From a virus (lineage: Duplodnaviria > Heunggongvirae > Uroviricota > Caudoviricetes): 22,467 nucleotides of DNA. The notes below the pieces were generated by a model. It was not told the DNA's origin, ran no database searches, and saw only the letters and a list, made by a program, of their open reading frames with translations. The position numbers and the translations under genes are program-made. The stretch is from IMG/VR virus record IMGVR_UViG_2636415673_000005, one strand, 5' to 3'. Below, one piece after another: positions 1,932 through 22,467 of the stretch. How positions within the stretch are numbered: position 1 is the stretch's first letter; each line of letters starts with the position of its first letter.

Positions 1932-2213
1932 TCACATCCAGCCACGAAGTTGATGCTCAACAGCAACCACGTATTCATCGAATAATGATGATATTTGCGA
2001 ATCATTAATGATGCGCACGTTTACAAAATATCCGTCTTCCTTAACACATACCGGTTCGCCATCTTCAGTCAGTTCTCCGGTTTCTTTGTACACGTTACCT
2101 ATCACGTCAATAAGAATATCATCCTGCATCGACTCGTCATCATAATAGCCAATACTCTCCATAAAGGCCGAAAAGTCGGCCCTGTCGGCAAATTTGAGTG
2201 TTAAATCTTTCAT
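1932..2213 (-). CDS. Small, strongly acidic protein (93 aa) translationally coupled to stf; possible fibre assembly factor
   Basis: Its ATG overlaps the stf stop (TAATG at 2211-2215). Composition is 21 Asp+Glu against 7 Lys+Arg. No similarity to lambda Tfa that I can recall. Function is inference from position only. Confidence 0.45.
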   Translation of the reverse strand: MKDLTLKFADRADFSAFMESIGYYDDESMQDDILIDVIGNVYKETGELTEDGEPVCVKEDGYFVNVRIINDSQISSLFDEYVVAVEHQLRGWM

Positions 2214-4588
2214 TAGATTGACTCCCCCACCTGAGCATCAGTCAATGCCTTGTGCCATATTCTGAAATTCCTGACATGACCAAATAAATGACGTAACCCG
2301 GCTGTAGTCTGGCCTCCAATACGGATAATTGCGGTGTTCTGAATACAGGACCATGTGGTTTTTGTTTCGCTGGATATATGCCCGTTACTTACTGAGCACG
2401 TAGACTGCTCTGACTTTACACGCATCCCCATAACCATTTTTTCAAGCGATGCGTTTTCGTTTACCCGTCTGTTAGCTCCTCCAATATCGCAATAAGGAAA
2501 TCCGTCGTAATCTGTTGAACGACCGAAGCCAAGAATAATAGCCGCTCCGGTTTGATGACCGCCGGTATCAAAAACACGTGGCGCTGCATTTGGCGTTTTA
2601 TACCAGTTCTTATGTACCTCACAAAGAACCGTAAAAGGAAGATTATAAAGATTATTCTTAATTGGAACTGTAACTATATCGCTTGCGCGGGTCGCCGCCG
2701 TCGCTCCTGATATAATAAAAGATGATACACAAGGCCCATCTTCTACTTGTGGGGTGGCCAGATAAATATAGTCACCAGATACGGTTGCCCCGCTCTGCTT
2801 AGGAGAATACTGTATCTGAGAGCCTATTTTTAACTCCCCATCAATTGCCTGAATTGTTGCCTCTGCAAAAATCCATCCGGTAGCTTCGTCCTTTCTGACT
2901 CTCGCTGTAATCCTTGAGGCAGCACCGCCTGTCATATTAATTTCAAGCGTTTGTGTATCAATATACGCATCACCAAGAAAAGTTGTTGCGCTACCGTCAT
3001 ATTTATCAAACCGGATACGCAACCTTACCTGCAGTTCTGTTTTAAAACGACATGAGGTTGTCACGTGTTTATTATCGCCTGAGACATCAACTGACTTTGT
3101 TGCAGCAATTGATGCCATATTAATGGCTGAGGTTTGCCCAATCAGAGAATCGTTGCAGACAAACTTTCCATAGGTAAAACCAAAATTATCCGTCCCTGTT
3201 TCGGGCACATCCATATTTGACGATCGCCCCCAACTGGCAGGGCTTTCCGAATTGAGCATGTAGTTTGTTCTTTGCCCCTCAATAAGCAGGCCATCACGTT
3301 CAAATCGTGGCTCGTCAATGGCAGCCTCTGTCAGCACACCAGATTTGTTAATATAGGTTGCTTTCGATGCACGTTTAAACTTAACAATCTTGTCGCCAGG
3401 CATCGTTATTTCATCGTCACCAATAACAATTTTTTTATATGACGGCGAAAAGCCCGTAATCATATCCAGCGAATCGTTAAATGGTATCCACACATCAGGC
3501 AGCGGCTGTAAGACATATTTATACGGCTCCGCAGCCTGGCTTGCGTACTCTCTGGCTGCATCTTCGCTTGCTTTAGCTGCCGTCTGGCTTGCTGCCGATG
3601 CTTTCGCTGAGTTCGCAGCCGCTGTTTCGCTCACCTTTGCGTTGGTTTCACTGGTTTTTGCTGCTTTTTGACTGTTAGCTGATGCAGTGGCAGAAGCAGC
3701 CGCCGCGCTTGCAGAACTGGCTGCGGCACTCTCGCTTTGGGCCGCTGCATCCTGACTGCTTTTCGCCGCAGTTTCACTGGCTTTGGCATTCGTTTCGCTG
3801 GTCTTCGCTGCCGTCTGGCTGGACTTTGCGTTAGTTTCACTCGTCTTCGCAGCTTTCTGGCTGTTAGCCGCAGCAGTTGCTGATCCAGCTGCTGAAGTCG
3901 CAGAACCGGCTGCCGCGCTCTCGCTTTCAGCTGCTGCAGCCTGGCTGTTTTTTGCCGCAGTTTCACTGGCTTTAGCATTCGTTTCGCTGGTTTTCGCTGC
4001 CGTCTGGCTGGACTTTGCGTTGGTTTCGCTCGTCTTTGCGGCTGTCTCACTGTTTTTCGCGTTGGTTTCTGATTTTTTGGCTGCTGTCGCGGAGTTTGCC
4101 GATGCAGTCTTTGAGGTCGCTGCCGCCTGTGCACTATTAGCTGCATTCGTTTCTGAGGTTTTCGCCGCGTTCTTCGATGATGCCGCTGCAGTTTCGGATT
4201 TCTTTGCCGCCGCTGCGCTCTGAGAGGCGGCTTCGGCGTTGCGTGCCACTTCTTCCACCATTGCCTCAAAACGACGCAATGCCTCCGGCATGACATCATC
4301 TTCCGTCATGGCACCGAGAAAATCATTCAGCGTACCTGGTCTGGAGCCTTCATAGACGGTAATGGTCCCGGCATGTGAAGGCGGAAAACCTTCAACCAGC
4401 AGGATGACGCTGTACTGGCCATGCTCAACATCCATGCTGTAACGCCCGGCTTCATCCGGATTTTCAGAGGCCACCGTGTTCACCAGTACCGTGGTGCTGT
4501 TACGCTTTGCCTTCAGTTGAATAGTGCAGTTCTGTATTGGTTTTCCCGCACAATCTTTCAGCACACCTGAGATTTTTACTGCTGCCAT
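2213..4588 (-). CDS. stf: Side tail fibre protein (lambda Stf-like N-terminus, Ala/Ser/Thr-rich repeat shaft, divergent C-terminal domain)
   Basis: N-terminus MAAVKISGVLKD…TIQLKAKRNSTTV…GRYSMDVEHGQYSVILLVEGFPPSHAGTITVYE matches my recollection of the lambda Stf N-terminal domain. Likely start is the ATG at 4588, with GGAG 9 nt upstream; the ORF track begins at a GTG at 4594. The central region is a low-complexity repeat (AAKTSETNAKxS…) and the C-terminal ~400 aa is unlike lambda Stf. Confidence 0.8.
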   Translation of the reverse strand: MAAVKISGVLKDCAGKPIQNCTIQLKAKRNSTTVLVNTVASENPDEAGRYSMDVEHGQYSVILLVEGFPPSHAGTITVYEGSRPGTLNDFLGAMTEDDVMPEALRRFEAMVEEVARNAEAASQSAAAAKKSETAAASSKNAAKTSETNAANSAQAAATSKTASANSATAAKKSETNAKNSETAAKTSETNAKSSQTAAKTSETNAKASETAAKNSQAAAAESESAAAGSATSAAGSATAAANSQKAAKTSETNAKSSQTAAKTSETNAKASETAAKSSQDAAAQSESAAASSASAAAASATASANSQKAAKTSETNAKVSETAAANSAKASAASQTAAKASEDAAREYASQAAEPYKYVLQPLPDVWIPFNDSLDMITGFSPSYKKIVIGDDEITMPGDKIVKFKRASKATYINKSGVLTEAAIDEPRFERDGLLIEGQRTNYMLNSESPASWGRSSNMDVPETGTDNFGFTYGKFVCNDSLIGQTSAINMASIAATKSVDVSGDNKHVTTSCRFKTELQVRLRIRFDKYDGSATTFLGDAYIDTQTLEINMTGGAASRITARVRKDEATGWIFAEATIQAIDGELKIGSQIQYSPKQSGATVSGDYIYLATPQVEDGPCVSSFIISGATAATRASDIVTVPIKNNLYNLPFTVLCEVHKNWYKTPNAAPRVFDTGGHQTGAAIILGFGRSTDYDGFPYCDIGGANRRVNENASLEKMVMGMRVKSEQSTCSVSNGHISSETKTTWSCIQNTAIIRIGGQTTAGLRHLFGHVRNFRIWHKALTDAQVGESI
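3560..4210 (-). repeat. In-frame tandem repeats inside stf (about three copies of a ~189-bp / 63-aa unit, with 21-bp sub-repeats)
   Basis: Seen in sequence: the string gccgcagtttcactggcttt…gctgccgtctggctggactttgcgtt recurs at 3765 and 3954 (period 189 bp), with a more degenerate copy upstream. The spurious ORFs on both strands here (3390-3671+, 3783-4223+, 3631-4299-) are low-complexity artefacts. Confidence 0.7.
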
Positions 4589-4598
4589 ATCCACTCCA

Positions 4599-4626
4599 CA
4601 AAAAAGCCCGCCTGAACCGGCGGGCT
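4599..4626 (-). terminator. Intrinsic terminator between lom and stf
   Basis: Seen in sequence: 8-bp stem AGCCCGCC / GGCGGGCT (4605-4612 / 4619-4626) with a 6-nt loop, followed on the minus-strand RNA by UUUUUUG. Confidence 0.55.
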
Positions 4627-4652
4627 GTCATAACACTGTGTTACCTGGCTAA

Positions 4653-5252
4653 TCAGAATTTATAACCGACACCCACGATGAAACCGTCAGTGCGCCAGTC
4701 ACCACTGCCGGAGCCTTCATAAGCAATATCAATGGCCACGGATTCGGTCGGGTTAAACTGCACGCCAGCCCCCCACGCCAGAGACGTGTTGCTGTGGCGA
4801 CCGTCATCACTTCCAGTCAGCACATCGTGCGTTTTCCCCTTGCTGTCAGTTACGCGGAGATAATCCCCGGAAAAAGTTGAAACACGGCTGTAAGCCACAC
4901 CTGCCATCGCATAAGCACTGAACCATTCATTCACGCGTACAGACGGCCCCGCCATCATGCTGAACCAGCGGTTACGCACTGAATCTTCATGCCAGCGGGT
5001 ATCGCTGTAATGCGTTTTTTGCTCATCTTTGGCATTGGCATAACTGAATGACGTCACCAGCCCCAGCGTGTCCGTAAATTCATAACGGTATTTCACGTTA
5101 ATGCCCTTCAGGTCATCGTTGCCGGGCATATCAGTATGGGTCTGAAGATACCCGGCGCTTAGTGTGGACTGATGCTCTGCTGCGCTCGCTGGCGTACCAG
5201 CGGCGACCAGCCAGACTACTGTGGACAGAATAACAGCACATAATTTACGCAT
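4653..5252 (-). CDS. lom: Lom-like outer-membrane protein (Ail/Lom/PagC family beta-barrel)
   Basis: 199 aa with an N-terminal signal peptide (MRKLCAVILSTVVWLVAAGTPASA), alternating beta-strand pattern and a C-terminal aromatic residue (…GVGYKF). It sits between J and stf exactly as lom does in lambda. GAGAGG lies upstream of the ATG. Confidence 0.8.
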   Translation of the reverse strand: MRKLCAVILSTVVWLVAAGTPASAAEHQSTLSAGYLQTHTDMPGNDDLKGINVKYRYEFTDTLGLVTSFSYANAKDEQKTHYSDTRWHEDSVRNRWFSMMAGPSVRVNEWFSAYAMAGVAYSRVSTFSGDYLRVTDSKGKTHDVLTGSDDGRHSNTSLAWGAGVQFNPTESVAIDIAYEGSGSGDWRTDGFIVGVGYKF

Positions 5253-5319: not shown

Positions 5320-8300
5320 TCAGCTAATCGTGATGCCTGCAGTGGCTTTCTTCATCACAACAACCAGCAAATCGCTGATACTTGCTGTGGGATACCAGCC
5401 ATTTACCCACCATGCTGATACAGAAAACTCCAGTGTCATTACGCCACTGCCTGCAGGCATATCAATAACACCCGTGTAAATCAGAGTATTATCCAGAGCC
5501 GTTCGGTTATAAATTTCAGCCCCGTTTTTCTTCACTATCAGGCGGCATGACGAATAAGTATCGCTATTCTCCCGTTCATGTCTGGCACCGCTGAAAGCCA
5601 CCGCTGGAATAACAATTTGCCGGTCAAACGGCTGATCGTCATAAACCCTGACGGTAATGGTCCCTGATGGCCACCGCTCCGGTGCACGGGAGTCCCGGGG
5701 GAAAGCTTTGCCCACTGTTTTAACGAGATCGCCTTCAATCTGGTTCGCGGACAGTTTTCCCAGAACCCGACAGTTCTCGTTAATCGTGACGTTGTTGAGC
5801 GTCCCGGAGTTCGCATTCACGCTACCGCTGATATCGGCATTTTTCGCCGTCAGTCGCCCGTCCGGTGTCAGGGAAAATGCCGGAGGATTACCGCCGCTGG
5901 TAATGGTGGGAGCCGTCAGATATTTCAGGAACACTTCATTCATGAATATCTGATCGCCCTGACCAACAAACATCGGCTTTGTGTTGCCATTCGCAGGATT
6001 AATCATCGCAATCCTGTCTGCCGCCAGCAGCACCTGACTCTGCATGCCGTCGGGGGTGTTCTCAATACCGGCACCGATACCCGCAATATAAAGGCGTCCG
6101 TCCTGCATCTGCTGCAGCTTCACTGCCCACATGCTGTTCAGGTTATTATTTGTATCAACCTGAACCTTCTGTATCTGCTGGATCGCTGCACTCTGGTCTT
6201 CCAGTTTCTTATTGACGGTCTGCGTGATTTCATTGCTGACATCCGTAATGGACGTCCTGATTTCAGCCAGGTCAGGCGCAAGCTGACCGTTATCAATCTG
6301 CGTCCACAGCTCCTGAGCCAGATGGGTTTTCCCTATCTCGCCTTTGAAAAAATCCAGATAGCCGGATGCATCATCACTCGGCTGACCAACAGCCTCCACG
6401 AATGCCGATTTGCCAACGGTGTTCACACTGCGAACGTAAAAATAATAATCATGGCCCGGTTTGATATTGATACTGGCGGCTATCCAGTACAGCCCCGTGC
6501 CAAGGTAGCGCGCTGTGGTTTCAACCTGCCTGATATCGGTAATCCGCTTTTCCGAGAACCAGAACTCAAACTGTACCGTCGGGTCATAAACGGCAAGATG
6601 CGGCGTGGCGGTTATCTGAAAATACCCCGGCGTCAGCTCAATCCGCGACGGTGCTACCGGTGCGGCAATCCGGAACGATACCGACGCCGGATCGCCCTGC
6701 TGTCCCCACGCATTTACCGCCCGGACTGTCAGCGTGTACCGCCCCAGCGCCAGTTGCGTGAAGCGGTATGTGGTTTCCGTCGTCCGGGCCGTGCTGACCA
6801 GCCGCTCACTGCCGTCATCCGCTGCCACGGTCAGGCGAAGCAGGAAGCTCACGCCCTTCACCACCTTCGGCGTGTCCCAGCGCGCCAGCACCTGATATTC
6901 CCCGCTGTCTGCGGTGACTTCGGCGGTCAGGTGCTGCACCGCTGGCGGCGTGACACCATTCACCGTGCCGCTCTGGTCGCCGTCAAAGTGCGCCCCGTTA
7001 TCCACGATGGCTTCTTTTTCCGGTACATGCTGCACGGCAGTGATGGCATACGTGCCGTCATCGTTCTCACGGATACTCACACAGCGGAACAGGCGCTGGC
7101 GCAGCGTCGGCAGCTTCAGCCCCCACATACTGTATTCTGCAACGCCGTCAGGAACCCGGTTCACTTTCACCTTAAGTCCGTCGGTGACGGACTGAACCTC
7201 CACGCTGACCGGATTACCACTTCCGTCAACCAGGCTTATCAGCGTGGTACCGGAGGATGGCAGCGTGATTTCACGGTCGAGCGTCAGCGTCCGGGTCTGG
7301 CTGTTCACCGCCAGCACGCGACCACCGGTGCTGATACCGGCATAGTCATCATCGCAGATTTCAATGACATCGCCCGGTACATGGCGAAGCCCTTCAGCAC
7401 CCACGCTGAAATCCACGGTCTGCGTCTCCAGCAGTTCCGTTTTAATCAGCCACAGCCCGGCGCGGTGTGCCTGCCCCCGGCTGGTACAGCCAAAGGCATC
7501 CATCTTCGTGACATTACGACCGTAACGGGCAATGGCCTGCGTATCTTCAACAAGCTCTGTCGCCGTCTCCCAGCCGTTGTCCGGGTCAATCCAGTTCACC
7601 TCAACGGCATTATGGCGGTCCTTCAGGGCGCTGAAGCTGTAGCGGAACGGCGCGCCATCATCCGGCATCACCACATTACTGCGGTTATAGGTCCACACCT
7701 TATCCGACGGTCGGTCCTGCACGAACGTCAGCGTCTGCCCGTTCCATACCGGCATACAGCGCATCGCCGAGCAGAAATCACTGAGCACATCCCACGCCTT
7801 GCGCTGTGTGGTCAGGTACGCATTACAGGTGATGCGCGGCTCCGTGCCGCCAAAGCCGTCCGGCACTGACTGGTCGCAGTACTGGCCGATGACATACAGC
7901 GCCCATTTGTCCACATCCGCCGCACCAAGACGTTTCCCCATGCCGTAGCGTGGATGGGTCAGCATATCCCACAGACACCAGGCCATGTTATTGCTGTATG
8001 CTGGCTTAAACGTTCCGTCCCAGATACCGCTGTATTGCCGAGTCTGCGGGTTATAGTTCGACGGCACCTGCAGAATACGCCCGCGCAGATGATAATTACG
8101 GCTCACCTGCTGGCTGCCGAACTGCTCCGAATCCACCTGTACGCCGACCAGTGCCGTGTTCGGGTAGCACTGTTTCACATCGATGATTTCGGTGTATGAC
8201 GACCAGAGCGTTTTGTTCTGCAGCTGGTCTGTGGTGCTGTCCGGCGTCATCCTGCGCATCCGGATATTGAACGGGCGCGGCGGCAGGTCACCCACCACCA

Positions 8301-8799
8301 CCGATGCTAGATACTGTGAGGTGGTTTTGCCTTTAATGGTGATGTCTTTTTCCGTCACCCAGCCACCATTACGCTGTATCTGAACCAGCAGGCGGACTTC
8401 CGACGGATTCCGGTCCCCCTTTGAGGTGGTTTCCACCAGTGCCTGCACACCGAAGGTAAAGCGCAGACGGTCGATGTTTGCCGACGTGATGGTCCGGGTA
8501 ATCGGCGTGTCGTACTTCACTTCCGTACCCAGCACCGTCTCGGAGCCGGAGGATTCAAATCCCTCCGGCGGTGTCTGCTCCTGCTCACCGGCCCGGAACA
8601 CCACCGTGACGCCGGATATATTGGTATTCCCCTCACTGTCCAGCACCGGCGTACTGTTCAGCAGCACGCTTTTTAATCCATCCACCGGACCTTCAACCGG
8701 CCCTTCGCTGATGGCATCGATCACACTCAGCAGCTGCGTGGACTTCAGGTTGTCCTTCGCTTCGCGCGGGGTATGCCCCTTACTGCTGCCTTTACCCAT
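5320..8799 (-). CDS. J: Tail tip / host specificity protein J (central tail fibre)
   Basis: 1159 aa. The N-terminus [34 protein letters not shown]… and most of the length match lambda J as I remember it; the last ~150-300 aa diverge. GGAG lies 11 nt upstream of the ATG. Confidence 0.9.
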
Positions 8800-8820
8800 T
8801 CGTCATGCTCCATAAACGAT

Positions 8821-8841
8821 AAAACCGCCCGGAGGCGGTTT
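8821..8841 (-). terminator. Hairpin with U-rich tail in the I-J intergenic gap (attenuator/terminator-like)
   Basis: Seen in sequence: AAACCGCC-cgga-GGCGGTTT, followed on the minus-strand RNA by UUUUAUCGUUUAU, then the J ribosome-binding site. Confidence 0.4.
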
Positions 8842-8859
8842 CACATAAAACATTTTGCA

Positions 8860-9501
8860 TCAGCGACCAATCACCACAACCTGACCACCATCCCCTTCGT
8901 CTGCCGTGCTGATCTCCTGAGAAACCACGCGTGACCCCACGCGCATTTCACCGTACAGAACCGGCAGAACATTGCCCTGGGCAACCATGTTATCCAGTGA
9001 AGAAAAATAGGTGTTCTGTTTGCCGTTATCCGTTGTCTGTGTGCGGGGGGTTTTGGGTTTAGGGGCCAGCATCTGTGCAACACCGCCAAGCGTCATACTG
9101 GCACCGAGAGAAAACAGCAGATTACTCGCCATAATTCCTACCCCCGGCATCCATATAGCAACCGCCATAACAGCCGCCCCCAGCACAGCCTGAAACACAC
9201 CGCCACTTTTGGCTCCTGCCAGACGCGGCACGATATGGATCACGGCACCATTTTCCAGCGGCTCATTAAGACGGGCAGACAATTCGGTTTCACCTGCATC
9301 ACGCCCGGCAATGCGTACCTGGTACCAGCCGTCGCTCAGTTTCTGACGAAATGCCGGGATCTGCATGGCCAGCGCCCGGATGGCTTCGGACCCCGTTTTC
9401 ACTCGAAGGTCGATGCGGCGGCCAAATCGTTGTAAATCCCCGTAAAGGCAGATGCGTGCCATGCCCGGTGACGCCAGAGGGAGTGTGTGCGTCGCTGCCA
9501 T
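8860..9501 (-). CDS. I: Tail assembly protein I
   Basis: 213 aa: MAATHTLPLASPGMARICLYGDLQRFGRRIDLRVKTG… …NGKQNTYFSSLDNMVAQGNVLPVLYGEMRVGSRVVSQEISTADEGDGGQVVVIGR. Matches lambda gpI by recollection. Its 5' end overlaps the 3' end of K by 103 nt in another frame, as in lambda. Confidence 0.85.
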   Translation of the reverse strand: MAATHTLPLASPGMARICLYGDLQRFGRRIDLRVKTGSEAIRALAMQIPAFRQKLSDGWYQVRIAGRDAGETELSARLNEPLENGAVIHIVPRLAGAKSGGVFQAVLGAAVMAVAIWMPGVGIMASNLLFSLGASMTLGGVAQMLAPKPKTPRTQTTDNGKQNTYFSSLDNMVAQGNVLPVLYGEMRVGSRVVSQEISTADEGDGGQVVVIGR

Positions 9502-10142
9502 TTGTCGGTGTACCTCTCTCGTTTGCTCAGTTGTTCAGGAATATGGTGCAGCAGCTCGCTGTCACCACAGTAAATGGCGGCATGATTCGGCACCGATGAA
9601 CCAAAACAGCACAGCAGCACATCGCCCGGCTGCGCCGCTGACAACGGCACCTGATACAGCCCTGTGGCCTCCAGATTATCCAGATAGAGATTCTGACCGT
9701 TACGCCACCAGTCATCCCCGCGATGAAAATCCGGCATCTCAATTCCCGCCAGATGGTAAGCGTCCCGGAACAGCGTGTAACAGTCCGTTACCCCGTGCTC
9801 AAAGCGCCGCCCGGTGAGATGCGGCACACAGCGGAATTTATGAATCGCCCCCCGGCAGACCAGCCACCACGGCAAATCACTCTGTACCTGCAGCCGCCGG
9901 TCGGCCTCACTCAGCCAGGGCAGACCACCGGGGTGGCTGTGGACCAGCGCCACAATCTCTCCCTGCATTTCTGCACTCAGCCAGTCCTCCGGCGACATCC
10001 GGAAATACTCCTCCGGCTCACCGGAGATATTCACGCAGGGAAAATATCTTTCCTCCTCCGGCGTTCTCACCACGAAGCCGCACGACTCCGCTGGCGCACA
10101 TCGCCGGGCGTGCGCCAGAATCGCTGATTCTGTCTCTGTCAT
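9399..10142 (-). CDS. K: Tail tip assembly protein K (MPN/JAB-like plus NlpC/P60-like domains)
   Basis: 247-aa ORF MTETESAILAHARRCAPAESCGFVV… with the HSHP metal-binding motif (…VALVHSHPGG…) and a Cys/His region downstream. The internal Met at residue 49 corresponds to a shorter ~199-aa form. Confidence 0.85.
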   Translation of the reverse strand: MTETESAILAHARRCAPAESCGFVVRTPEEERYFPCVNISGEPEEYFRMSPEDWLSAEMQGEIVALVHSHPGGLPWLSEADRRLQVQSDLPWWLVCRGAIHKFRCVPHLTGRRFEHGVTDCYTLFRDAYHLAGIEMPDFHRGDDWWRNGQNLYLDNLEATGLYQVPLSAAQPGDVLLCCFGSSVPNHAAIYCGDSELLHHIPEQLSKRERYTDKWQRRTHSLWRHRAWHASAFTGIYNDLAAASTFE

Positions 10143-10147
10143 GGGAT

Positions 10148-10846
10148 TTACTGCGAAAGTTTGTTAATGGAAAGGAAGCTGCCAAAGTTGCCGACATTAT
10201 TGCGAAACTTACAGCCACTCAGGCATTTGCTGCATTTATCCTTCGTGATATCGGACGTCGGCTGGTCATATTCATCCGCGACCGCCGGACCGCTATAACC
10301 GCACTCATCGCCGCGATAGGTCCAGGTGCAGGTGTTGGCCAGCATGATACGTCCCGGAAAAACAGCGCCATCCGTTTCAGTCGGCGTGGACAGTACAAAA
10401 GAGGCACTGACCGCGCTCAGTTCGCTGCACTGCTCGATGCGCCAGCGGCTGATCACCTCCTGCTCCGGATCGGCTTCGCTGTTTCCGTTGACGAAGTTCA
10501 CCGCATCCAGAAAGCGGGCGTAAACCTTACGCCGGACCACCGTTCCGCCGACCAGACTCTGCAGATCTTCCGCCATCCCGGTGATCATGCCGTGCAGGTT
10601 AGAGACCGCCAGTGTCGGACGGGCAGCACTGCCCTTGCCGTTCATCTCAAATCCACTCCCCTGAATGGGATAGGCCTGATACTGCCGACTCTGCCAGGTG
10701 ACAGACTCACCTTTTTCGTTCTGCTCATTACAGAAAAAGTAGCGATCCCCGCCTACCTCGGTCAGGTCGATTTCCCAGAGCACCACGCTGGCCGACTGCT
10801 CCGCACGAATGCATTCATTCAGCGTTTCCTGTTGTATGTCCTGCAT
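10148..10846 (-). CDS. L: Minor tail protein L
   Basis: 232 aa: [47 protein letters not shown]… with a C-terminal Cys cluster (CSKCLSGCKF). Near-identical to lambda gpL as I recall it. Overlaps M at ATGA. Confidence 0.9.
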   Translation of the reverse strand: MQDIQQETLNECIRAEQSASVVLWEIDLTEVGGDRYFFCNEQNEKGESVTWQSRQYQAYPIQGSGFEMNGKGSAARPTLAVSNLHGMITGMAEDLQSLVGGTVVRRKVYARFLDAVNFVNGNSEADPEQEVISRWRIEQCSELSAVSASFVLSTPTETDGAVFPGRIMLANTCTWTYRGDECGYSGPAVADEYDQPTSDITKDKCSKCLSGCKFRNNVGNFGSFLSINKLSQ

Positions 10847-11184
10847 CAGATCACCACTTCGTCAAACTGACACGAAAAATCGGTATAGGTGATATGTTCT
10901 GTTGCTGACCACGTTCGACACACCACTCTGATTTTTCTGTTAATACCCGGCGGGCGCCAAAAAAAAGATTTATAGCCTTCATGCCGGGCTAAAAATTTTT
11001 CAAATGAATCACGTTCATTCGCCTCAACTTTGAAATCACAGGTGAAAACGCGCAGAGAATGATTAAGTCCATTTGGACTTCGTTGCTCATAACCATCGCC
11101 AAATCTTACAGTTTTTATCGATGGTTTATTTTCTGTTTTCATTCCATCCTCTGGTAACCAGTGAAATTCTTCCGTATTAGCCAC
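10846..11184 (-). CDS. M: Minor tail protein M
   Basis: 112 aa containing …[16 protein letters not shown]…[16 protein letters not shown]…, lambda gpM-like; in the conserved position between the tape measure and L. Confidence 0.85.
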
Positions 11185-14100
11185 TTAACATTCCCCCATC
11201 ACGTCGCATATTTAACAGATTGCCCTGCACCCGCTGATCAACCATCCCCATAAGTGCTTTTATTGCCTGAGGGCCAATCTCTCCATTCTGGCCGTCATTT
11301 TGAACAGTGATTTGGTATACAGGGGCATAGGTAATATCTCCGCCTCCATTACCACTTTTACTATTAACAGCTCTGACACCAAGAGAACCATCGGAAGTTC
11401 GTGTTAATGGCATAATGGCTTCCGGACCAGCCTCACCAAAAACACCAGCCCCTCTTGCAAAAGCAAAAAATTGCGGGGAATCATAAATACCGTTCGAATA
11501 CGTGTTCAATGACGGAGACTCATAAACACCGCCCTTTGCATTCGGAATAAATTTACTAATAGCACTCCCGATAGTTCCTAAAATCCCCCCAGAAGAACTG
11601 TTACTAATGCTGTAGAAAATCCCAGTAATTGAAGCCTTTAATGCTATTCGACTAAGATCCGAAATCACGGAAGTAGCGAAAGAACGAAAATTTGCTTTGC
11701 CTGTCGTGACAAAATCACCCAGCGCATCGGTCATTCCATCAAACATCTGAGTCGTGGTTGATTTTATCTGCTCACTGATATCCTTAGTGTCATCCAGCCA
11801 GTTATTGAATCCCTGGGAGGCACCACTAACCCAGTCTCCTGCCTGAATATCGAGCTGCTCGTTTTTCTGTCTGACAATTTCTTTTTCTCGTTCCAGAGCA
11901 TCATTCAGAGCCTGCATTTTCTCCTGAAAAACATGATTTGACATCCCACGGGATTTATCTGCATAGTCACGTTCAAGTTGCAGACGCTGATTGTTATATT
12001 CACGTTCAATCCGCAGTAATTCCTGCTGGCGTTGCTGATTTTTATCGCCAACCCCATAACCAGCAATCTGAATATCATACCCCTGTTGACGATTATCAAT
12101 CGAAGCCTGCAATGAATCACGCCATGCAGCTATTTCGGCGGATTCCTTGATTAGCCTGTTATTTTTTTCAATCGCAACATTTTTCTCCATCAACGCGGTT
12201 ATTTCTTCCCGGTGTAAGAGAAGCGATTTCTGATCCTTGGTTAATTTCGATGACGGTCGTGACTCCAGGTCGGCAATCTGCTGACGCCACTTAACCAGTT
12301 CCTGTTCAGAGGAACTTAATTTAACGGTTAATTCAGTTTGTGAACTTAGTAACGCATTCTGTTGATTCAGATGATCAATCATTCGTTGGGCAGCATCATC
12401 CGAATAACCTTTCGCCTTTGGTTGCTTTGGATCTTTATAACGCTCATTTATTTGAGCGATAAGATTATTATATTCTTCCTTTGAATACTGACTCTTTAGT
12501 TTTTCCAGTTTTGCAAGTTCACTAGCTCTCTGCTGCTCCCGGGTCTGATATTGTTTTGAAAAGGCATCTGCTCTCTGTCTGAGTTCAATTCCTTCCTGTT
12601 GTCGCTTGTTGTAATCGTTTATTGATGAATTTAGTACGTCCTGAGCAATTTTTTCTGCTTGAAGTACGCCCAATTGCTGCTTTAATCGTGCCAGCCTTTT
12701 ATTTTGAGCTCCGCCATCTCCAATGCCACCTAACCCGAAAACTCCGGGTCGGGTATTTTTTTCTATTTCATCAATTTGACGGAGAACATCTGAGATTTTT
12801 TGATCAAGGGAGGCCTCACGGCCAATATCCAGCATGGAATCCCATGCCCATTTTGCGGAGTCTGCGACAGCTTTCCATGCAGTCTCAAGATAACCAAGAT
12901 TTTCTTTAATCTGGTTGGTGCGCTGGATCATTGAGGATGAGTATGCTTCTGTCGCAATGCGGGCGGCCTCCTGCTGGTTCCCTTCATCCTGTAGCGCCTT
13001 AATCTGGTTATAAGTCGCAATTGTCAGAAAATGGTACTGATCATTAAGTTTTGATATGGCACTGACAGGATCCTTTGCAATTTCATTGAAGTCATTAACC
13101 AGTTGTTCGGTTGATATTCCTGTTACTTCGCTCGTTTTTACTATCGCTGTCGTCACTTGCTCCAGCGAACTGCTCGCTACCTTTCCCGAACGCACAAGCT
13201 GGTTTAATACTGCCGCCGCAGCGCCAGTTGTCGAATCAGCCGCATTCCCGGCACGTTGAACTATATCGGCCAATTGCCCGCTGGTTGTCCCCAACTGATT
13301 TCCGGTAAGAATAAGAGACTTATTAAATTCGTCCTGCTCCTGAGAGCCTTTATAGTAAGCCAGCCCTAAGACGCCAACGGCTGCTGCGGCCAGGGTAAAA
13401 GGATTAATTAATCCCAGCACATAAGAACCAACACCTTTGATCGCCGGGCCAATCCCACCGAACATATCTTTTAGCTGGCCGCCCTGCTGCATTAACACCA
13501 TAAAAGGCGACTGACCAGTGGACAACCCAACAACAATATCCGTCATTTGTGCAGGCAACATGCGCATAGCAAAAGCCGTTTGTTTTGCCGACATTCCGGT
13601 TTTGCTTAATTGAGATTGAGTAACCTCAAGCTCACTCCGCATAGCACGAAGTTTTCCAGAAAGTTCCTCATACATTTCAGGAGAGAGCATCCCCTTAGCT
13701 TTTGCTTCATTGAGCTGTTTCTGTTGTTCTACCAGACGATTAAAAGCAGTTCCGACAGGGTCAAGTTGAGCAATCAGACGTTGCAAAGCAGCAACCTGTT
13801 CATCATGCGCTTTTGCTGCTTCTCGCTCTGCCTGAGCCTCTCCGGTAAGCTCTCGCCGTGTTTCCTGTATTTTTCGGCTATAATTCTCAAACTGAGAACC
13901 ATTTATTTTCCCGGATGCAAACGCAGCATTAAGTTCATCCTGCTGTTGTTCAAGATTTCTTAGCGCCGCAGCCAGAGGGTCGATCTTGTCCAGCATTCTT
14001 TGAAAGGCCTGAGTCTGCGCTTCCTGCTGGGCGGCAGCAAGTTTTCCGGCCTTCTCGGCTTCTCTCTGCGCTTGCGCAACCCCGCTCAATTCCTCTGTGG

Positions 14101-14410
14101 TTTCATTAAGTTTACGGACAAGAAATTCATATTCTTCTTTATCAATAAGCCCTTTATCGAAAAATTTCTTTAATTCAGAATAGCGTCGACCGACAGTATC
14201 AATTGCGGCACCAACTGGATCAATAGCTGCTTTTAATTTTGCGAGCGCGTTCTTCTCATCTTCTGTTGCCTTAGTCACTTTCCCTGCGCTATTTGCAGCA
14301 GTTTCCCCGGCCTGCGTCATTTTGACTAATGAGGAGGTCAGATTGTCAGCATTATTTTTTGCTCCAGTGCTATCAATAATTATTGCGAGACGCGAGGTTT
14401 GCTCTGCCAT
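11177..14410 (-). CDS. H: Tail tape measure protein
   Basis: 1077-aa ORF in the canonical position after G/GT. Mostly alpha-helical, with N-terminal ~70-aa repeats, a hydrophobic/Gly-rich central segment, and a C-terminal region (…MLNSESP…) typical of lambda H-type tape measures. GGAG lies upstream of the ATG. Confidence 0.9.
13570..14230 (-). repeat. Three diverged ~70-75-aa tandem repeats in the N-terminal part of the tape measure protein
   Basis: Seen in translation: [21 protein letters not shown]…, [21 protein letters not shown]…, [21 protein letters not shown]…, each followed by an E/Q/A-rich helix. Boundaries are approximate. Confidence 0.5.
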
Positions 14411-14435
14411 TTATTAAAACTCCAGACAACAAAAA

Positions 14436-14451
14436 GCCCACCGAAGTGGGT
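14436..14451 (-). terminator. UUCG-tetraloop hairpin with U-tract in the gap before the tape measure gene (attenuator-like)
   Basis: Seen in sequence: minus-strand RNA CCCAC-UUCG-GUGGG followed by CUUUUUGUUG, about 25 nt upstream of the tape-measure start codon. Confidence 0.35.
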
Positions 14452-14573
14452 TTCAGGCGACATAATAGTAGATATAGCGATTACGAGGCCACGCAATGCT
14501 TTTCTCCAGGAGCATCATCGATTTAATTAAAGACACCATCACATCTCTGTAACAGAGTGTACGTAATTAACAA

Positions 14574-14894
14574 CTACACACACTGCTCCTGAAAATACTG
14601 GTCATCCAGTGCAAAGATCACTGCTTCAAACTCATCGCGCTCAATCAATACCGGATGAGTGGCTAAATATTCATTTATCTCTGTCAGAGATAAAGGCAAA
14701 GGCACCCCGGTCATTCCAGCATAACGTCGGGCACGGGATATTACCGAATAGGCGTACAACAATTCCTTAAGCACCGGGTCTATTTCTGGTTCCGGTATCG
14801 GTGGCAACCTGAGTTTTTCTCGCTTCCATCTTGCCTTTTCCCCCCTTTCTCCCCCGAACTCCGATAACCACCGCTGGGCGGCTATGGCTTTTTT
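14574..14894 (-). CDS. T-like frameshift extension of the tail assembly chaperone (expressed only as a G-T fusion)
   Basis: The -1 frame is open from the slippery site at 14888-14894 down to the stop at 14574 (…AIAAQRWLSEFGGERGEKARWKREKLRLPPIPEPEIDPVLKELL…). The ORF-track 'start' at 14807 is a TTG, and there is no independent ribosome-binding site. Confidence 0.6.
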   Translation of the reverse strand, partial: KKAIAAQRWLSEFGGERGEKARWKREKLRLPPIPEPEIDPVLKELLYAYSVISRARRYAGMTGVPLPLSLTEINEYLATHPVLIERDEFEAVIFALDDQYFQEQCV

Positions 14895-15343
14895 ATCGTA
14901 TCCTGCTTCTGCTGCTCTTTACCCTGGGCGATGCTGGCTGCTTCTGCAAGGATCTGCCAGTACAACTCTGGATTCTGCTTAAGCAGCGCGATCCCTCGTT
15001 CTGGCGTATATTCCAGTGCAACCTCAGCACCATTAACCAGTTCACCAACCCCTTTCCAGTCTTTCAGCAGATAACGAGCAGCATTATCAATGAGTAAATC
15101 ATCAACAGAATCTACCTCGGAAACCTTTGAAATATCAAACTCCTTCGTTCCGACGTGCAAACTGGCATCCATTTTCTCAATGTGACGACGGATTAATGCA
15201 TTACGGGAGCGATACTGATCGTTATCGCTGCTTGCCACCAACAGTTTTAACCCGTCTATAGGTTTTAAGTCCTTCATTGGCGTAAACCAGCGTTCTCCAC
15301 CGATGATAATTTTCTGATTAAGAATAAACATCCATAACCTCAT
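14882..15343 (-). CDS. Tail assembly chaperone (gpG-like)
   Basis: About 150-aa acidic protein between the major tail protein and the tape measure, ending in the slippery sequence. An alternative start is the ATG at 15331, which has GAGG 5-8 nt upstream. Confidence 0.65.
   Translation of the reverse strand: MRLWMFILNQKIIIGGERWFTPMKDLKPIDGLKLLVASSDNDQYRSRNALIRRHIEKMDASLHVGTKEFDISKVSEVDSVDDLLIDNAARYLLKDWKGVGELVNGAEVALEYTPERGIALLKQNPELYWQILAEAASIAQGKEQQKQDTIKKP
14888..14894 (-). promoter_or_regulatory. Programmed -1 ribosomal frameshift slippery heptamer A_AAA_AAG (G to GT)
   Basis: Seen in sequence: minus strand …ACG AUA AAA AAG CCA UAG. The zero frame stops two codons later, while the -1 frame continues in frame with the downstream ORF (14888-14807 = 81, divisible by 3). 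Confidence 0.6.
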
Positions 15344-15352
15344 TCAATGCGT

Positions 15353-15379
15353 CCCCCTGTAGTGCAGTACCACAGGGGG
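15353..15379 (-). promoter_or_regulatory. 8-bp stem-loop in the major tail / chaperone intergenic region, overlapping a possible ribosome-binding site for the first chaperone ATG
   Basis: Seen in sequence: CCCCCTGT (15353-15360) pairs with ACAGGGGG (15372-15379), with an 11-nt loop. No U-tract follows on the minus strand, so it is not a classical terminator. Confidence 0.4.
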
Positions 15380-15391
15380 AATAACGGAAAA

Positions 15392-16354
15392 TCAACTAAT
15401 CGCATCAGCACTGGCTTTTGCGATCACGGCAGTCGGGGAGCATTTTTTTCTGGTTATCGTAGGTGCTTCATCTGCTGCGGTAATGCTCAATTGAACCTGG
15501 ATAATGTCAGTATTACCCCCATCAGGCCATTCACCTGACACCTGAACCTTCGGGAAACTGAAAGTGTATGCCCCCTCTCCATTCGAAAGCGTGAAGCTGA
15601 ACGGAACTGTTTCTCCAGTCAGTGTTTTACTCCAGATTTCCCACGCGGCTTTAGACCATGAAAGCGTCACCGTACCGGACGGTGTAAAAGTAGTCGGAAT
15701 ATTTGCTCCTGCATAAGGCGAGCCAGTCCCGATACAACGCTGTGTCTGGAGTTTGTTATCGAACTGAATATCAAAACTGTCGATACAAAAACCGTTACCT
15801 CCGGCAACACCATTCAGGCTTACTGCTGAAACCGCCTTAAACGAATAGCGTAACTTTCCTGCACTATCCACAGGTTCGCCTTTGATAAAATTCGTATCAT
15901 CGGCCTTTGATTCCCAGCCCAGCCCGGCAAAGGTTACGGTCGCTGTAATATCGCCGTCGTTAGGGATCTGCATTTTCCATGAGCCAACCTGCGCTCCTCT
16001 GACGACAGAGGCAATTCCGACATCGGACGCATAGGTCGCCAGAGAAAATGTTATTCGCTCATTCCCCATTGTCAGAGAATCGCCTGACCATTCCGCGCCG
16101 AAACAGGATGCAAGAAAATCATCATGTTGACCCCAGCGAAATTTGGTACCAACATCACCGCCGACATCCACAGTGCCAGGCGTCGCCCCCTGAGCCATCC
16201 GGGAGCCACCAATCTCATTATTTTCGCCTTTATTCTGGGTGGGTTTTACTCCCCAGCTTGTGCGTTTTAATAAACTCCAGTCACCACTTGCTGGCGTAGT
16301 GCCTGCAACTGTCTCCCGGATAAATGCCGAGATAACCTTTGCACCTGAACTCAC
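15392..16354 (-). CDS. Major tail (tube) protein
   Basis: 320 aa, Gly/Thr/Ser-rich, immediately upstream of the G/GT chaperone pair, which is the conserved position of the major tail protein. AGGAG lies upstream of the ATG. No sequence-level match recalled. Confidence 0.7.
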   Translation of the reverse strand: MSSGAKVISAFIRETVAGTTPASGDWSLLKRTSWGVKPTQNKGENNEIGGSRMAQGATPGTVDVGGDVGTKFRWGQHDDFLASCFGAEWSGDSLTMGNERITFSLATYASDVGIASVVRGAQVGSWKMQIPNDGDITATVTFAGLGWESKADDTNFIKGEPVDSAGKLRYSFKAVSAVSLNGVAGGNGFCIDSFDIQFDNKLQTQRCIGTGSPYAGANIPTTFTPSGTVTLSWSKAAWEIWSKTLTGETVPFSFTLSNGEGAYTFSFPKVQVSGEWPDGGNTDIIQVQLSITAADEAPTITRKKCSPTAVIAKASADAIS

Positions 16355-16380
16355 AGGAGCCTCCTATGTCATTAATTGCG

Positions 16381-16773
16381 CTAGAGCGCGCGATATGGAA
16401 TTTGAAGATTAAGCTGGAACCAGCCATTCTTTTCGCCGACGGCTATTGAGGAAACAGCCTGGTAACTGAGACGATCGTCATCCTGAAACTCAAACAGTTC
16501 CCGCAATTTATCGGCTGTCTCAGTAATGAGTTTTGAACCAGAACCTGCGGGGACAAATAACTGAATAATGATTATCCCCGTGCGATAAACAACCGGCCCC
16601 GCGCCAATTTCATTAACTCCAGCTTGCCCGGGAATATTACTTAACCGCGCCCAGATTAACTTACCGGAAGGATCGAACGTTGGCCCGTTCGGATACAATA
16701 CGTCTTTTCCATCAATAATCGTCTGTGCCGTCATTCTGGAAATAACCGTATTTCTGATTTCAGTAAACTTCAT
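16381..16773 (-). CDS. Tail terminator protein (gpU-like)
   Basis: 130 aa. The N-terminus MKFTEIRNTVISRM resembles lambda gpU (MKHTELRAAV…), and the position directly upstream of the major tail gene fits. Confidence 0.55.
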   Translation of the reverse strand: MKFTEIRNTVISRMTAQTIIDGKDVLYPNGPTFDPSGKLIWARLSNIPGQAGVNEIGAGPVVYRTGIIIIQLFVPAGSGSKLITETADKLRELFEFQDDDRLSYQAVSSIAVGEKNGWFQLNLQIPYRAL

Positions 16774-17150
16774 TTGTAAGCCTGTAAAACACCATGAAAA
16801 GCGTTGGCATACACGCCAGTTGGCGCTTGTTGTGAATGACCGTTTTCAAGAGCCTCTGCATAAGGAAGGTTATTCTGGATATAAATAACCCCGTAATTTG
16901 CAGCTTTCGAAATAACCCCGATCCCACGCTGAACAGCAATCGTACCGTTCGGATCCACGTTATCAGATATACCAAAATCGGGATGCTGTAACGACACCAG
17001 GTTGTTATTTCTGAAACGTCCGGTATCAACCGGAGCAGCAATATCAATAGCAGTAAGAATCTGAATAGCGATGTAGCGAATCTTCAGCCCTACATCTTCC
17101 TCAATCATCCCGGCAAATATTGACGGTTCTATATCCCATGCCTTTGCCAT
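16770..17150 (-). CDS. Head-tail joining / tail completion protein (HK97 gp10-like)
   Basis: 126 aa with a …VDTGRFRNN… motif reminiscent of the HK97 gp10 family; positioned between the head and tail modules. Confidence 0.45.
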   Translation of the reverse strand: MAKAWDIEPSIFAGMIEEDVGLKIRYIAIQILTAIDIAAPVDTGRFRNNNLVSLQHPDFGISDNVDPNGTIAVQRGIGVISKAANYGVIYIQNNLPYAEALENGHSQQAPTGVYANAFHGVLQAYK

Positions 17151-17534
17151 TTACGCTCTCCTTAACTGGATAGAGTAAACTGATGCGGAAGGATCTACAC
17201 TTGCTGTAATTACCTCGTATCGTTGTAACTGCCTTGATACAGGATCATAAATCTCAATAATATGGTCGACAGCTGGTTTATCCGTAACCTCGCATACCAG
17301 AGCGGTTAATTTAAGGTCACCATGCAAAATATTAATCCCATCAATTCTGCCCAGCTTATAACGTGTCAACACGCCTCGCCCGGTATAGATTGCGGTGGAT
17401 TCGCCGCCAGTTTCCGTCACAGGATCCCAGTGCCGGTGCGTAACGTAAGAACCAGAAAAATCACTCACGGCGTCCGCTAAATCCTCATCAAAAGCAGCGG
17501 CAACCTCTGACTGAATCTCTTCACGAAGCCCCAT
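17151..17534 (-). CDS. Head-tail joining / head closure protein (gpFII-like position)
   Basis: 127-aa ORF in a tightly packed run of small genes between the capsid and tail genes. Assignment is by position and size only. Confidence 0.4.
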   Translation of the reverse strand: MGLREEIQSEVAAAFDEDLADAVSDFSGSYVTHRHWDPVTETGGESTAIYTGRGVLTRYKLGRIDGINILHGDLKLTALVCEVTDKPAVDHIIEIYDPVSRQLQRYEVITASVDPSASVYSIQLRRA

Positions 17535-17929
17535 TATCCCCCCCTCACAACCCTGACTTGTGAGCGACTAAGTCCGTACGGTTTCAGCAGTGCTATCGCA
17601 AGCTGTAAATCGGGTTCAAGCAATGCAGTGCTGTTTGCTGGCAACTCAGAAAATGATTTCGATACACTGACCCCGTCAGCCGACACGGCTTTACTGATAA
17701 CAACGCCAGAATCATTTTTCTGCTGAAACAACTTACCGAATGAGGCAATTCTGGCTGCATATGCTCCCGCAAGTTTTACCTCTTCCGGAATATGGGATGG
17801 GTTAATTTTCAGGTTGAAGCCATTAAGCCAGGCATTAGCCATTAAAACAGCTTTATTTTTAGCGTTCTCACTCGTCCAGGCGTTCCCAAACGCATTATCA
17901 ACGTCATCACAGGTCACGTAAGTGATCAT
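17534..17929 (-). CDS. Head-tail connector/adaptor protein (small alpha-helical protein)
   Basis: 131-aa ORF immediately downstream of the capsid gene cluster. GGAG lies upstream, overlapping the stop of the preceding small ORF. Family assignment is tentative. Confidence 0.4.
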   Translation of the reverse strand: MITYVTCDDVDNAFGNAWTSENAKNKAVLMANAWLNGFNLKINPSHIPEEVKLAGAYAARIASFGKLFQQKNDSGVVISKAVSADGVSVSKSFSELPANSTALLEPDLQLAIALLKPYGLSRSQVRVVRGG

Positions 17930-17932
17930 GTG

Positions 17933-18109
17933 TTACTCCTGAGTTTTCCAGCCCATAGCCTTCCAGTTGTCAACTTCATCAGGATGAACATTAGCGATAG
18001 TTGGTGCGCCGGGAAACATCTGATAATCGGTCACCATAACCACTAACTCAATTTGCGTTTTTTGTGCGGCTTCACGCTGTGCTCTTTGCTCTTTAGTTAA
18101 TCCGGCCAT
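17933..18109 (-). CDS. Small ORF (58 aa) between the capsid and connector genes, not in the supplied ORF track
   Basis: By my reading of the minus strand: ATG at 18109, TAA at 17933-17935, translation MAGLTKEQRAQREAAQKTQIELVVMVTDYQMFPGAPTIANVHPDEVDNWKAMGWKTQE. G-rich ribosome-binding site upstream. Packed between a terminator and the next gene. Confidence 0.3.
   Translation of the reverse strand: MAGLTKEQRAQREAAQKTQIELVVMVTDYQMFPGAPTIANVHPDEVDNWKAMGWKTQE

Positions 18110-21354: not shown

Positions 21355-21374
<20 letters not shown>
20259..21374 (-). CDS. Head morphogenesis protein (phage Mu gpF-like / SPP1 gp7-like minor head protein)
   Basis: 371 aa. Position immediately after the portal gene and the motif region …TTPQCRIRD…HFCCRS… resemble Mu-F family proteins. 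Confidence 0.55.

Positions 21375-22467
<1,093 letters not shown>

Follow-up and report, generated by a model that had tools for sequence, protein, structure and literature searches.

The lambda-type tail-tip region of the window

The DNA analysed here, referred to as the window, is a 22,467-nucleotide stretch of a Caudoviricetes virus (IMG/VR record IMGVR_UViG_2636415673_000005). The features relevant to gene J, the four segments of its product and the surrounding genes are as follows.

5320–8799, minus strand: gene J, tip attachment (central tail fibre) protein, an intact open reading frame of 1159 amino acids plus stop
6370–8799, minus strand: J residues 1–810, lambda-type body with the hub domains and two FNIII/Ig domains
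5935–6369, minus strand: J residues 811–955, divergent module 1, alpha-helical shaft and upper central straight fibre
5776–5934, minus strand: J residues 956–1008, conserved island, lower central straight fibre
5323–5775, minus strand: J residues 1009–1159, divergent module 2, Ig-like receptor-binding domain (RBD)
8860–11184, minus strand: tail-tip genes I, K, L and M, lambda type, upstream of J (open reading frames and Pfam)
4653–5252, minus strand: lom homologue (Ail/Lom outer-membrane protein), downstream of J (Pfam Ail_Lom, E = 3.5e-126)
2213–4594, minus strand: side tail fibre Stf, 793 amino acids (Pfam phage_tail_N at residues 5–134)
22138–22467, plus strand: start of an IS3-family element (ISEc31) in the portal gene (DUF4055) (LSC52 annotation, open reading frames)

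The open reading frames and Pfam matches follow the lambda gene order M-L-K-I-J, then lom and stf. The I, K, L and M products match Lambda_tail_I, Prok-JAB with NLPC_P60, Phage_tail_L and Phage_min_tail, respectively. A colinear 4.6-kb block (window 6303–10868, lambda 13407–18002) takes in the end of M, then L, K and I, and J as far as residue ~832, with 92% nucleotide identity. The lambda-like part comprises the tail tip only, from the end of M to J; the tape measure protein (1077 amino acids), the tail tube, the P22-type coat and the Mu-F-like head protein belong to another lineage with a GC content of 0.43–0.48. The Lom homologue shares 45% identity with lambda Lom. In BLASTP, Stf aligns with lambda orf-401 only over residues 5–331 (58% identity, low-complexity repeats included), and no alignment to orf-401 was obtained beyond residue 331. 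The C-terminal half of Stf is unrelated to that of lambda, in line with the distinct Stf tip noted in the first-pass annotation of this DNA.

Domain organization of J

The translated open reading frame begins with the same residues as lambda J, and the 1159-residue product is 83% identical to lambda J (P03749; 1132 amino acids, NC_001416) from end to end (BLASTP). The six gpJ Pfam domains occur in order, all above their cut-offs, with E values of 1.9e-31 to 3.4e-43: FNIII-A_GpJ, Phage-tail_3, Ig_J, Ig_J_second, Phage_Tail_Tip (residues 872–1000) and Ig_GpJ_C (residues 1029–1159). The PDB sequence matches include 8iyk, 8xcj and 9wca, with a score of 2170 bits for chain J of 8iyk. J is thus a full-length tip attachment protein of the lambda gpJ type. 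The names used here for the shaft, fibre and receptor-binding domains are taken from the cryo-EM study of lambda J (PMC11101478).

Identity to lambda J is distributed unevenly along the protein. The body (residues 1–810) is identical at 786 of 810 positions (97%), with 95.5% identity at the nucleotide level. Module 1 retains 62 of 145 residues (43%; 62% of nucleotides) and is a long variant carrying a 27-residue insertion relative to lambda. The island that follows returns to 49 of 53 identical residues (92.5%; about 84–95% of nucleotides), and it is 96–98% identical to the corresponding segments of PhiR47_1, 2G7b and PPompW. The RBD falls again to 62 of 151 residues (41%; 51% of nucleotides). 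By Fisher tests against the body, the RBD (p = 2e-61) and the shaft block 811–955 (p = 4e-57) differ in conservation, whereas the island does not (p = 0.09).

The earlier description of J as lambda-like to about residue 830 agrees with the DNA, which stays lambda-like without interruption as far as window 6303 (J residue ~832). The accompanying statement that the last ~150–300 residues differ from lambda is essentially right in the segment identities and the alignment to lambda J, and a C-terminus as conserved as the rest of the protein was not seen. The picture of a single divergent C-terminal region has to be amended: the divergence is real, but it is split into two blocks by the 53-residue conserved island. 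The span originally assigned to it, 5320–5800, contains the RBD block (residues ~1000–1159) and leaves out the first block at 5935–6369.

Replacement of the tip by a non-homologous domain was considered and rejected. Residues 1029–1159 match PF12421 (Ig_GpJ_C) over its entire length, positions 1–135 of 135, with E = 6.8e-37 and 127 bits against a cut-off of 26.2. In a PDB sequence search, the last 200 residues match the chain "A8 gpJ 713" of 9wca with E = 2e-82 and lambda J of 8xcj with E = 2e-60. The tip is therefore a diverged homologue of the lambda domain, and with such matches to solved chains its fold is not in doubt.

J as a mosaic of recombining segments

Nine J genes were aligned, those of the window, lambda, phage 21, PhiR47_1, 2G7b, the O157 prophage PPompW_EH2246, lambda h434, Stx1_499 and 640R1. 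At residues identical between the window and lambda, the same codon is used in 90% of cases in the body, 53% in the shaft, 69% in the island and 42% in the RBD. The GC content is 0.589 in the body, 0.506 in module 1 and 0.503 in the RBD. Because synonymous sites have diverged as much as the protein, the two blocks appear to be old lineages brought in by exchange rather than products of fast local evolution.

The two modules also assort independently. The window shaft (811–955) is 98% identical to that of phage 21, 97% to that of the O157 PPompW prophage and 100% to that of 640R1. The J proteins of PhiR47_1 and 2G7b combine a lambda-type body and a short lambda-type shaft with an RBD of the window's class; phage 21 J combines a lambda-type body and the long shaft with a different RBD; and PPompW J joins a 76%-identical body and the long shaft to an RBD of the window's class. 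All combinations of shaft and RBD modules are seen across the aligned phages. The window's RBD DNA is found at 99% nucleotide identity behind a different shaft in PhiR47_1 and at 90% behind the 76%-identical body of PPompW.

Divergence in place under rapid positive selection would require no recombination, and diversifying selection is known to act on receptor-binding regions (PMC6646904). However, this explanation does not account for synonymous divergence that matches that of the protein, for two divergent blocks parted by a conserved island, or for the occurrence of the same RBD behind a different shaft and behind a different body. In-place evolution was rejected on the synonymous sites and the assortment of modules, and we give it hardly any weight. 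Judged from these nucleotide comparisons, the J C-terminus is the product of module exchange and not of fast local evolution. The modular host-range swapping suggested by the first-pass annotation is upheld by the nucleotide identities, the steps in same-codon use, the independent assortment of shaft and RBD and the unrelated C-terminal half of Stf.

J is accordingly best described as an assembly of four recombining segments: a lambda body (1–810), a phage-21-type long shaft and upper fibre (811–955), a conserved lower-fibre joint (956–1008) and an Ig-like RBD (1009–1159). Homologous recombination within conserved stretches would shuffle the shaft and the RBD separately among lambdoid phages. 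The island 956–1008 is likely the joint at which such recombination takes place between the modules. It contains window residue 992, equivalent to lambda residue 964, and position 964 of lambda gpJ is the fusion point in engineered gpJ chimeras (PMC11338833). The RBD itself may be composite. Residues 1061–1120 show 77–88% nucleotide identity to other alleles of the RBD class, compared with 97–100% for residues 1001–1060, which suggests that 1061–1120 is a smaller exchanged sub-module of separate origin.

Receptor of the window RBD

The window RBD is 98.7% identical to that of PhiR47_1, 94% to 2G7b, 92.7% to PPompW, 64–66% to phage 21, 62% to A8 and 43–45% to h434. It lacks close identity to the LamB-binding RBD allele of lambda (residues ~981–1132), and the two form separate megablast classes. 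By these identities the window RBD belongs to the class of 1A2, PPompW and 2G7b, as a PhiR47_1 sub-allele. The DNA of 1A2 and A8 was taken from the supplement of PMC11338833, a machine-read PDF with frame errors, and 1A2 was compared by frameshift-tolerant alignment over 142 cleanly read RBD codons. The 1A2 RBD agrees with the PPompW allele at 138 of these 142 codons, and the window agrees with 1A2 at 128 of 142, in keeping with its 92.7% identity to PPompW. The four mismatches of 1A2 to PPompW turn up whichever guide sequence is used, also among the 14 to the window, and probably reflect reading errors.

Both of the engineered gpJ chimeras 1A2 and A8 use OmpC (PMC11338833). The host used for 1A2 was MG1655 without lamB and ompC, supplied with OmpC variants from a plasmid; at the top MOI, 76–99% of cells were positive for the delivered reporter with 20 of 23 OmpC variants, whereas delivery did not exceed 2% for G1, G2 and G40 and was 2% for the OmpC of K-12 (MG1655) (PMC11338833). 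Neither 1A2 nor A8 works with every OmpC variant (PMC11338833). In a later preprint, 1A2 was directed at O157 through OmpC (10.1101/2025.02.28.640725). No receptor data were found in the literature for PhiR47_1, 2G7b and 640R1, the phages with the closest RBDs. A 2026 receptor-prediction preprint treats J-like proteins of Drexlerviridae and excludes the lambda J tip.

The first-pass annotation had concluded from the divergence of the C-terminus that the receptor is probably not LamB. The conclusion finds support in the 92.7%-identical allele used in the OmpC-dependent 1A2, but divergence alone is insufficient ground for it. The native receptor of phage 21 is LamB (PMC11336670), yet its RBD is only 48–49% identical to that of lambda. 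The window RBD, at its 64–66% identity to that of phage 21, might by the same token still use LamB and have diverged by drift or by adaptation to LamB variants. Against this stands the far closer 1A2/PPompW allele, which was selected on a lamB-deleted recipient and needs plasmid-borne OmpC, so that continued use of LamB is unlikely, with perhaps a slender chance of being correct. Close identity, in turn, does not guarantee a shared receptor even in the low 90s, since the RBDs of A8 (OmpC) and phage 21 (LamB) are 82% identical and differ in receptor.

The comparison with J proteins of known receptor, also proposed at first pass, thus places the OmpC-dependent 1A2 class nearest, and from it we infer the receptor of the window RBD. 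Because the 92.7%-identical 1A2/PPompW allele works through OmpC in lamB-deleted cells, OmpC rather than LamB is most likely the receptor of the window RBD. Taken as a whole, the description of J as a four-segment mosaic carrying an RBD of the commonest natural class, with OmpC as the likely porin, is one that we hold with reasonable confidence.

The lambda J–LamB complex offers a model of how such an RBD would act. Cryo-EM of lambda J with LamB revealed a trimeric central fibre and a mechanism of tail-tip opening (PMC11101478). By analogy, the three RBDs at the tip of the fibre would insert their distal loops into the trimeric porin, and porin binding would spread the RBDs, twist the fibre, flip the shaft and open the tail tip. 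A trimeric fibre that opens the tail tip on receptor binding is carried over to the window J by homology with lambda.

Differences between the window sub-allele and 1A2

The window RBD differs from PPompW/1A2 by 11 substitutions, clustered at residues 1073–1081, 1118–1120 and 1131–1134: R1073K, R1076K, N1078H, S1079T, T1081I, K1090R, T1109S, S1118H, V1120H, W1131L and G1134N. Specificity hotspots reported for natural J homologues lie at lambda positions 1012, 1048–49, 1077–78 and 1107 (Maddamsetti et al. 2018, PMC6646904), and eight of the 11 substitutions fall within five residues of these four hotspots (permutation p = 0.0035). Receptor use in this RBD family can shift with few substitutions, as the phage 21/A8 pair and the single I1025T change, which confers OmpC use on phage 21, indicate.

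The sub-allele shared by the window and PhiR47_1 might therefore recognize another target than 1A2 does, either other OmpC variants or a porin such as OmpF. The position of the substitutions near the hotspots, the apparently separate origin of segment 1061–1120 and the inability of both 1A2 and A8 to use some OmpC variants all favour such a shift, whereas the overall identity to the 1A2 RBD is high and 1A2 already accepts most of the OmpC variants. We consider a different target rather unlikely. The broader proposal that the target range of the sub-allele differs in some way from that of 1A2 is somewhat less doubtful and may be entertained tentatively on the sequence differences. If it were true, the range might extend to the K-12-type OmpC that 1A2 is unable to use, or to a different porin.

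Abundance of the RBD class in E. coli

Of 5426 complete E. coli genomes, 3372 contain a match to the 453-nucleotide RBD DNA of the window, and the median is two copies per genome. Counted by record, 236 matches have at least 99% identity, 121 have 95–99%, 2285 have 90–95% and 753 have 80–90%. The corresponding lambda piece is found in 98 of the 5426 genomes, always at 99% identity or above, and laboratory strains (e.g. DE3 lysogens) head the list. The phage 21 piece occurs at 90% identity or above in about 1090 records. The window's RBD class is the commonest one in natural E. coli and the lambda tip is the rare one. Within its class, the window's own sub-allele is a minority.

State of the prophage copy

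A prophage of E. coli LSC52 matches the window at 99.97% identity. It adjoins ompN/ydbJ and carries trkG, ynaK and ydaY, features found also in the Rac prophage of K-12. In 242 genomes, 80% or more of the window is present. At its right end, DUF4055 is encoded at 21358–22032 and the transposase domain HTH_Tnp_1 at 22174–22467; most matches in other genomes end at window 22137, and in the LSC52 annotation DUF4055 is split by ISEc31. Since the IS element cuts the portal gene, the prophage is probably defective, and the window copy probably cannot make heads or virions on its own. The earlier statement that this prophage targets a particular receptor is weakened to that extent. At window 5697, in a G5 run (5697–5701) of the RBD coding sequence, the LSC52 copy has also lost one G; its annotation marks a frameshift, which may reflect either a genuine lesion or an error in sequencing.

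It follows that J may be an unused remnant in a defective prophage, its RBD recording how an ancestor docked rather than a present function. The truncated portal gene and the frameshift in the near-identical LSC52 copy speak for a remnant; the intact, full-length open reading frame of the window J and the many genomes that match through window 22137 and carry no IS sequence at the right end speak against it. Recombination with a superinfecting lambdoid phage can, moreover, rescue tail genes. We rate a present-day remnant at about an even chance, perhaps slightly better, and the window J would probably be idle unless rescued through recombination.

Relation to known J proteins

Lambda gpJ (P03749; 8IYK, 8XCJ/8XCK) resembles the window J in length class, in its six Pfam domains and in the gene order around it. 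It differs in a shaft and upper fibre that are 43% identical and 27 residues shorter, and in a 41%-identical RBD that binds LamB. The engineered gpJ 1A2 (Brodel et al., Nature 2024, PMC11338833), equivalent to the J allele of the O157 PPompW prophages (LC567836), carries an RBD of the window's class. PPompW J shares the long shaft with the window, whereas its body is 76% identical and the 11 RBD substitutions lie mostly in the presumed specificity loops. OmpC dependence was measured for 1A2; for the window J it is argued from kinship. The J proteins of PhiR47_1 (PV340566) and 2G7b (NC_049954), each of 1131 amino acids, share the lambda-type body and, at 98.7% and 94%, the RBD, but have the short lambda-type shaft. 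Phage 21 J (OL657228) shares the lambda-type body (97%) and the long shaft (98%), and differs in its 64–66%-identical RBD, for which LamB is the native receptor and OmpC was added by one substitution. The lambda h434 fibre and gpJ A8 (9WCA/9WCB) carry homologous Ig-like RBDs on a lambda J scaffold and both use OmpC, which indicates that OmpC use is common in this J family; their RBDs, 43–45% and 62% identical to that of the window, are of different classes.

The contrast between body and tip seen in the window J is real, ordinary and already described. Exchange of the J C-terminus as a determinant of host range goes back to the lambda h434 hybrid, as cited in PMC11101478. The C-terminal specificity region of J was established as an independent evolutionary module in 2018, with indel peaks upstream of it (Maddamsetti et al., PMC6646904); we take these peaks to correspond to the shaft insertion of the window. 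For 2G7b, a 2020 preprint by Andrews and Fields (10.1101/2020.06.25.171868) reported a distinct host range and a J whose first 982 residues are >97% identical to those of lambda, against 40–60% for the last ~150. The study behind the 640R1-type records, by its title, characterizes phages located in clinical isolates; given that title, they are not counted here as proof of viable virions. The window's RBD class has been used since 2022–2024 to retarget lambda particles to OmpC.

The sole point beyond published work is the exact target range of the sub-allele. For annotation, a "lambda-like J" in natural E. coli usually carries a non-lambda RBD. The minor sub-allele is a candidate for gpJ chimera panels aimed at new OmpC variants. 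Should its target range indeed differ from that of 1A2, natural sub-alleles of the J loops would form a series matched to the polymorphic surface loops of OmpC.

Junction of the tail-tip block

The lambda-like tail-tip block (window 6303–10868) is 92% identical to lambda and gives way to a tape measure, tail and head region of non-lambda type.

~10870–11180: junction where the lambda-like tail-tip block meets the region of non-lambda type

The GC content per 1 kb is ~0.57–0.61 across window 6000–10000, falls to 0.54 near 10500 and is 0.43–0.48 in the non-lambda region. This region encodes a P22-type coat protein and a Mu-F-like protein. Near-identical sequence occurs in the 'vB_EcoS-...R' prophage records and in Salmonella phage SPF_0923.

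Portal gene and the related prophage of E. coli LSC52

The portal gene (DUF4055) is interrupted at window 22138 by an IS3-family element.

21355–22137: part of the portal gene (DUF4055) left of the element
22138–22467: start of the IS3-family element inside the portal gene (ISEc31 according to the matching LSC52 annotation)

In most related genomes the matches to the window end at 22137; the IS sequence is therefore absent at this position in those genomes. The prophage copy in the window is probably defective. In the LSC52 locus (NZ_CM137002, locus positions 1–46466) the prophage adjoins the ompN/ydbJ and sitABCD genes and carries trkG, ynaK and ydaY, a setting and gene content that resemble the Rac prophage region of K-12.

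Lom, side tail fibre and downstream ORFs

4653–5252: Lom, outer-membrane protein of the Ail/Lom type
2213–4594: side tail fibre Stf, 793 aa
3635–3865 and 3824–4054: direct repeats in stf
882–2213: two ORFs following Stf

Lom shares only 45% identity with its lambda counterpart. The stretch comprising the lom 3′ end and the stf 5′ end (window 4236–4780) shows 84% nucleotide identity to lambda and is another small mosaic patch. The N-terminus of Stf is lambda-like and is followed by Ala/Ser/Thr-rich repeats of the 'KTSETNAK' type, which are encoded by the ~190-nt direct repeats (83% identical), and then by a C-terminal half unrelated to lambda Stf. PGAP annotates the LSC52 stf as two separate features, one a pseudogene and the other a 'head spike fiber' protein. 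Of the two ORFs after Stf, the first (93 aa) has no Pfam match and the next (346 aa) contains a Peptidase_S74 (endosialidase chaperone) domain. What follows Stf thus appears to be a second protein of the fibre or spike kind, not a Tfa assembly protein as in lambda.

Receptor-binding domain of gpJ

The region encoding the Ig-like receptor-binding domain of the tip attachment protein gpJ contains a G5 run (window 5697–5701). One G of this run is missing from the LSC52 prophage, which is otherwise 99.97% identical to the window, and the LSC52 gpJ carries a frameshift annotation. The missing base is due to genuine decay of the gene or else to a mistake in sequencing the homopolymer.

A sub-mosaic is also present within the domain (window 5440–5620, J residues ~1061–1120). 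Residues 1001–1060 are 97–100% identical to the PPompW, 2G7b and 640R1 alleles, and residues ~1061–1120 show 77–88% nucleotide identity to them; the PhiR47_1 allele is 97–100% identical to the window across the whole of residues 1001–1120. This identity pattern suggests that a smaller, loop-bearing segment (residues ~1061–1120) was exchanged inside the receptor-binding domain.
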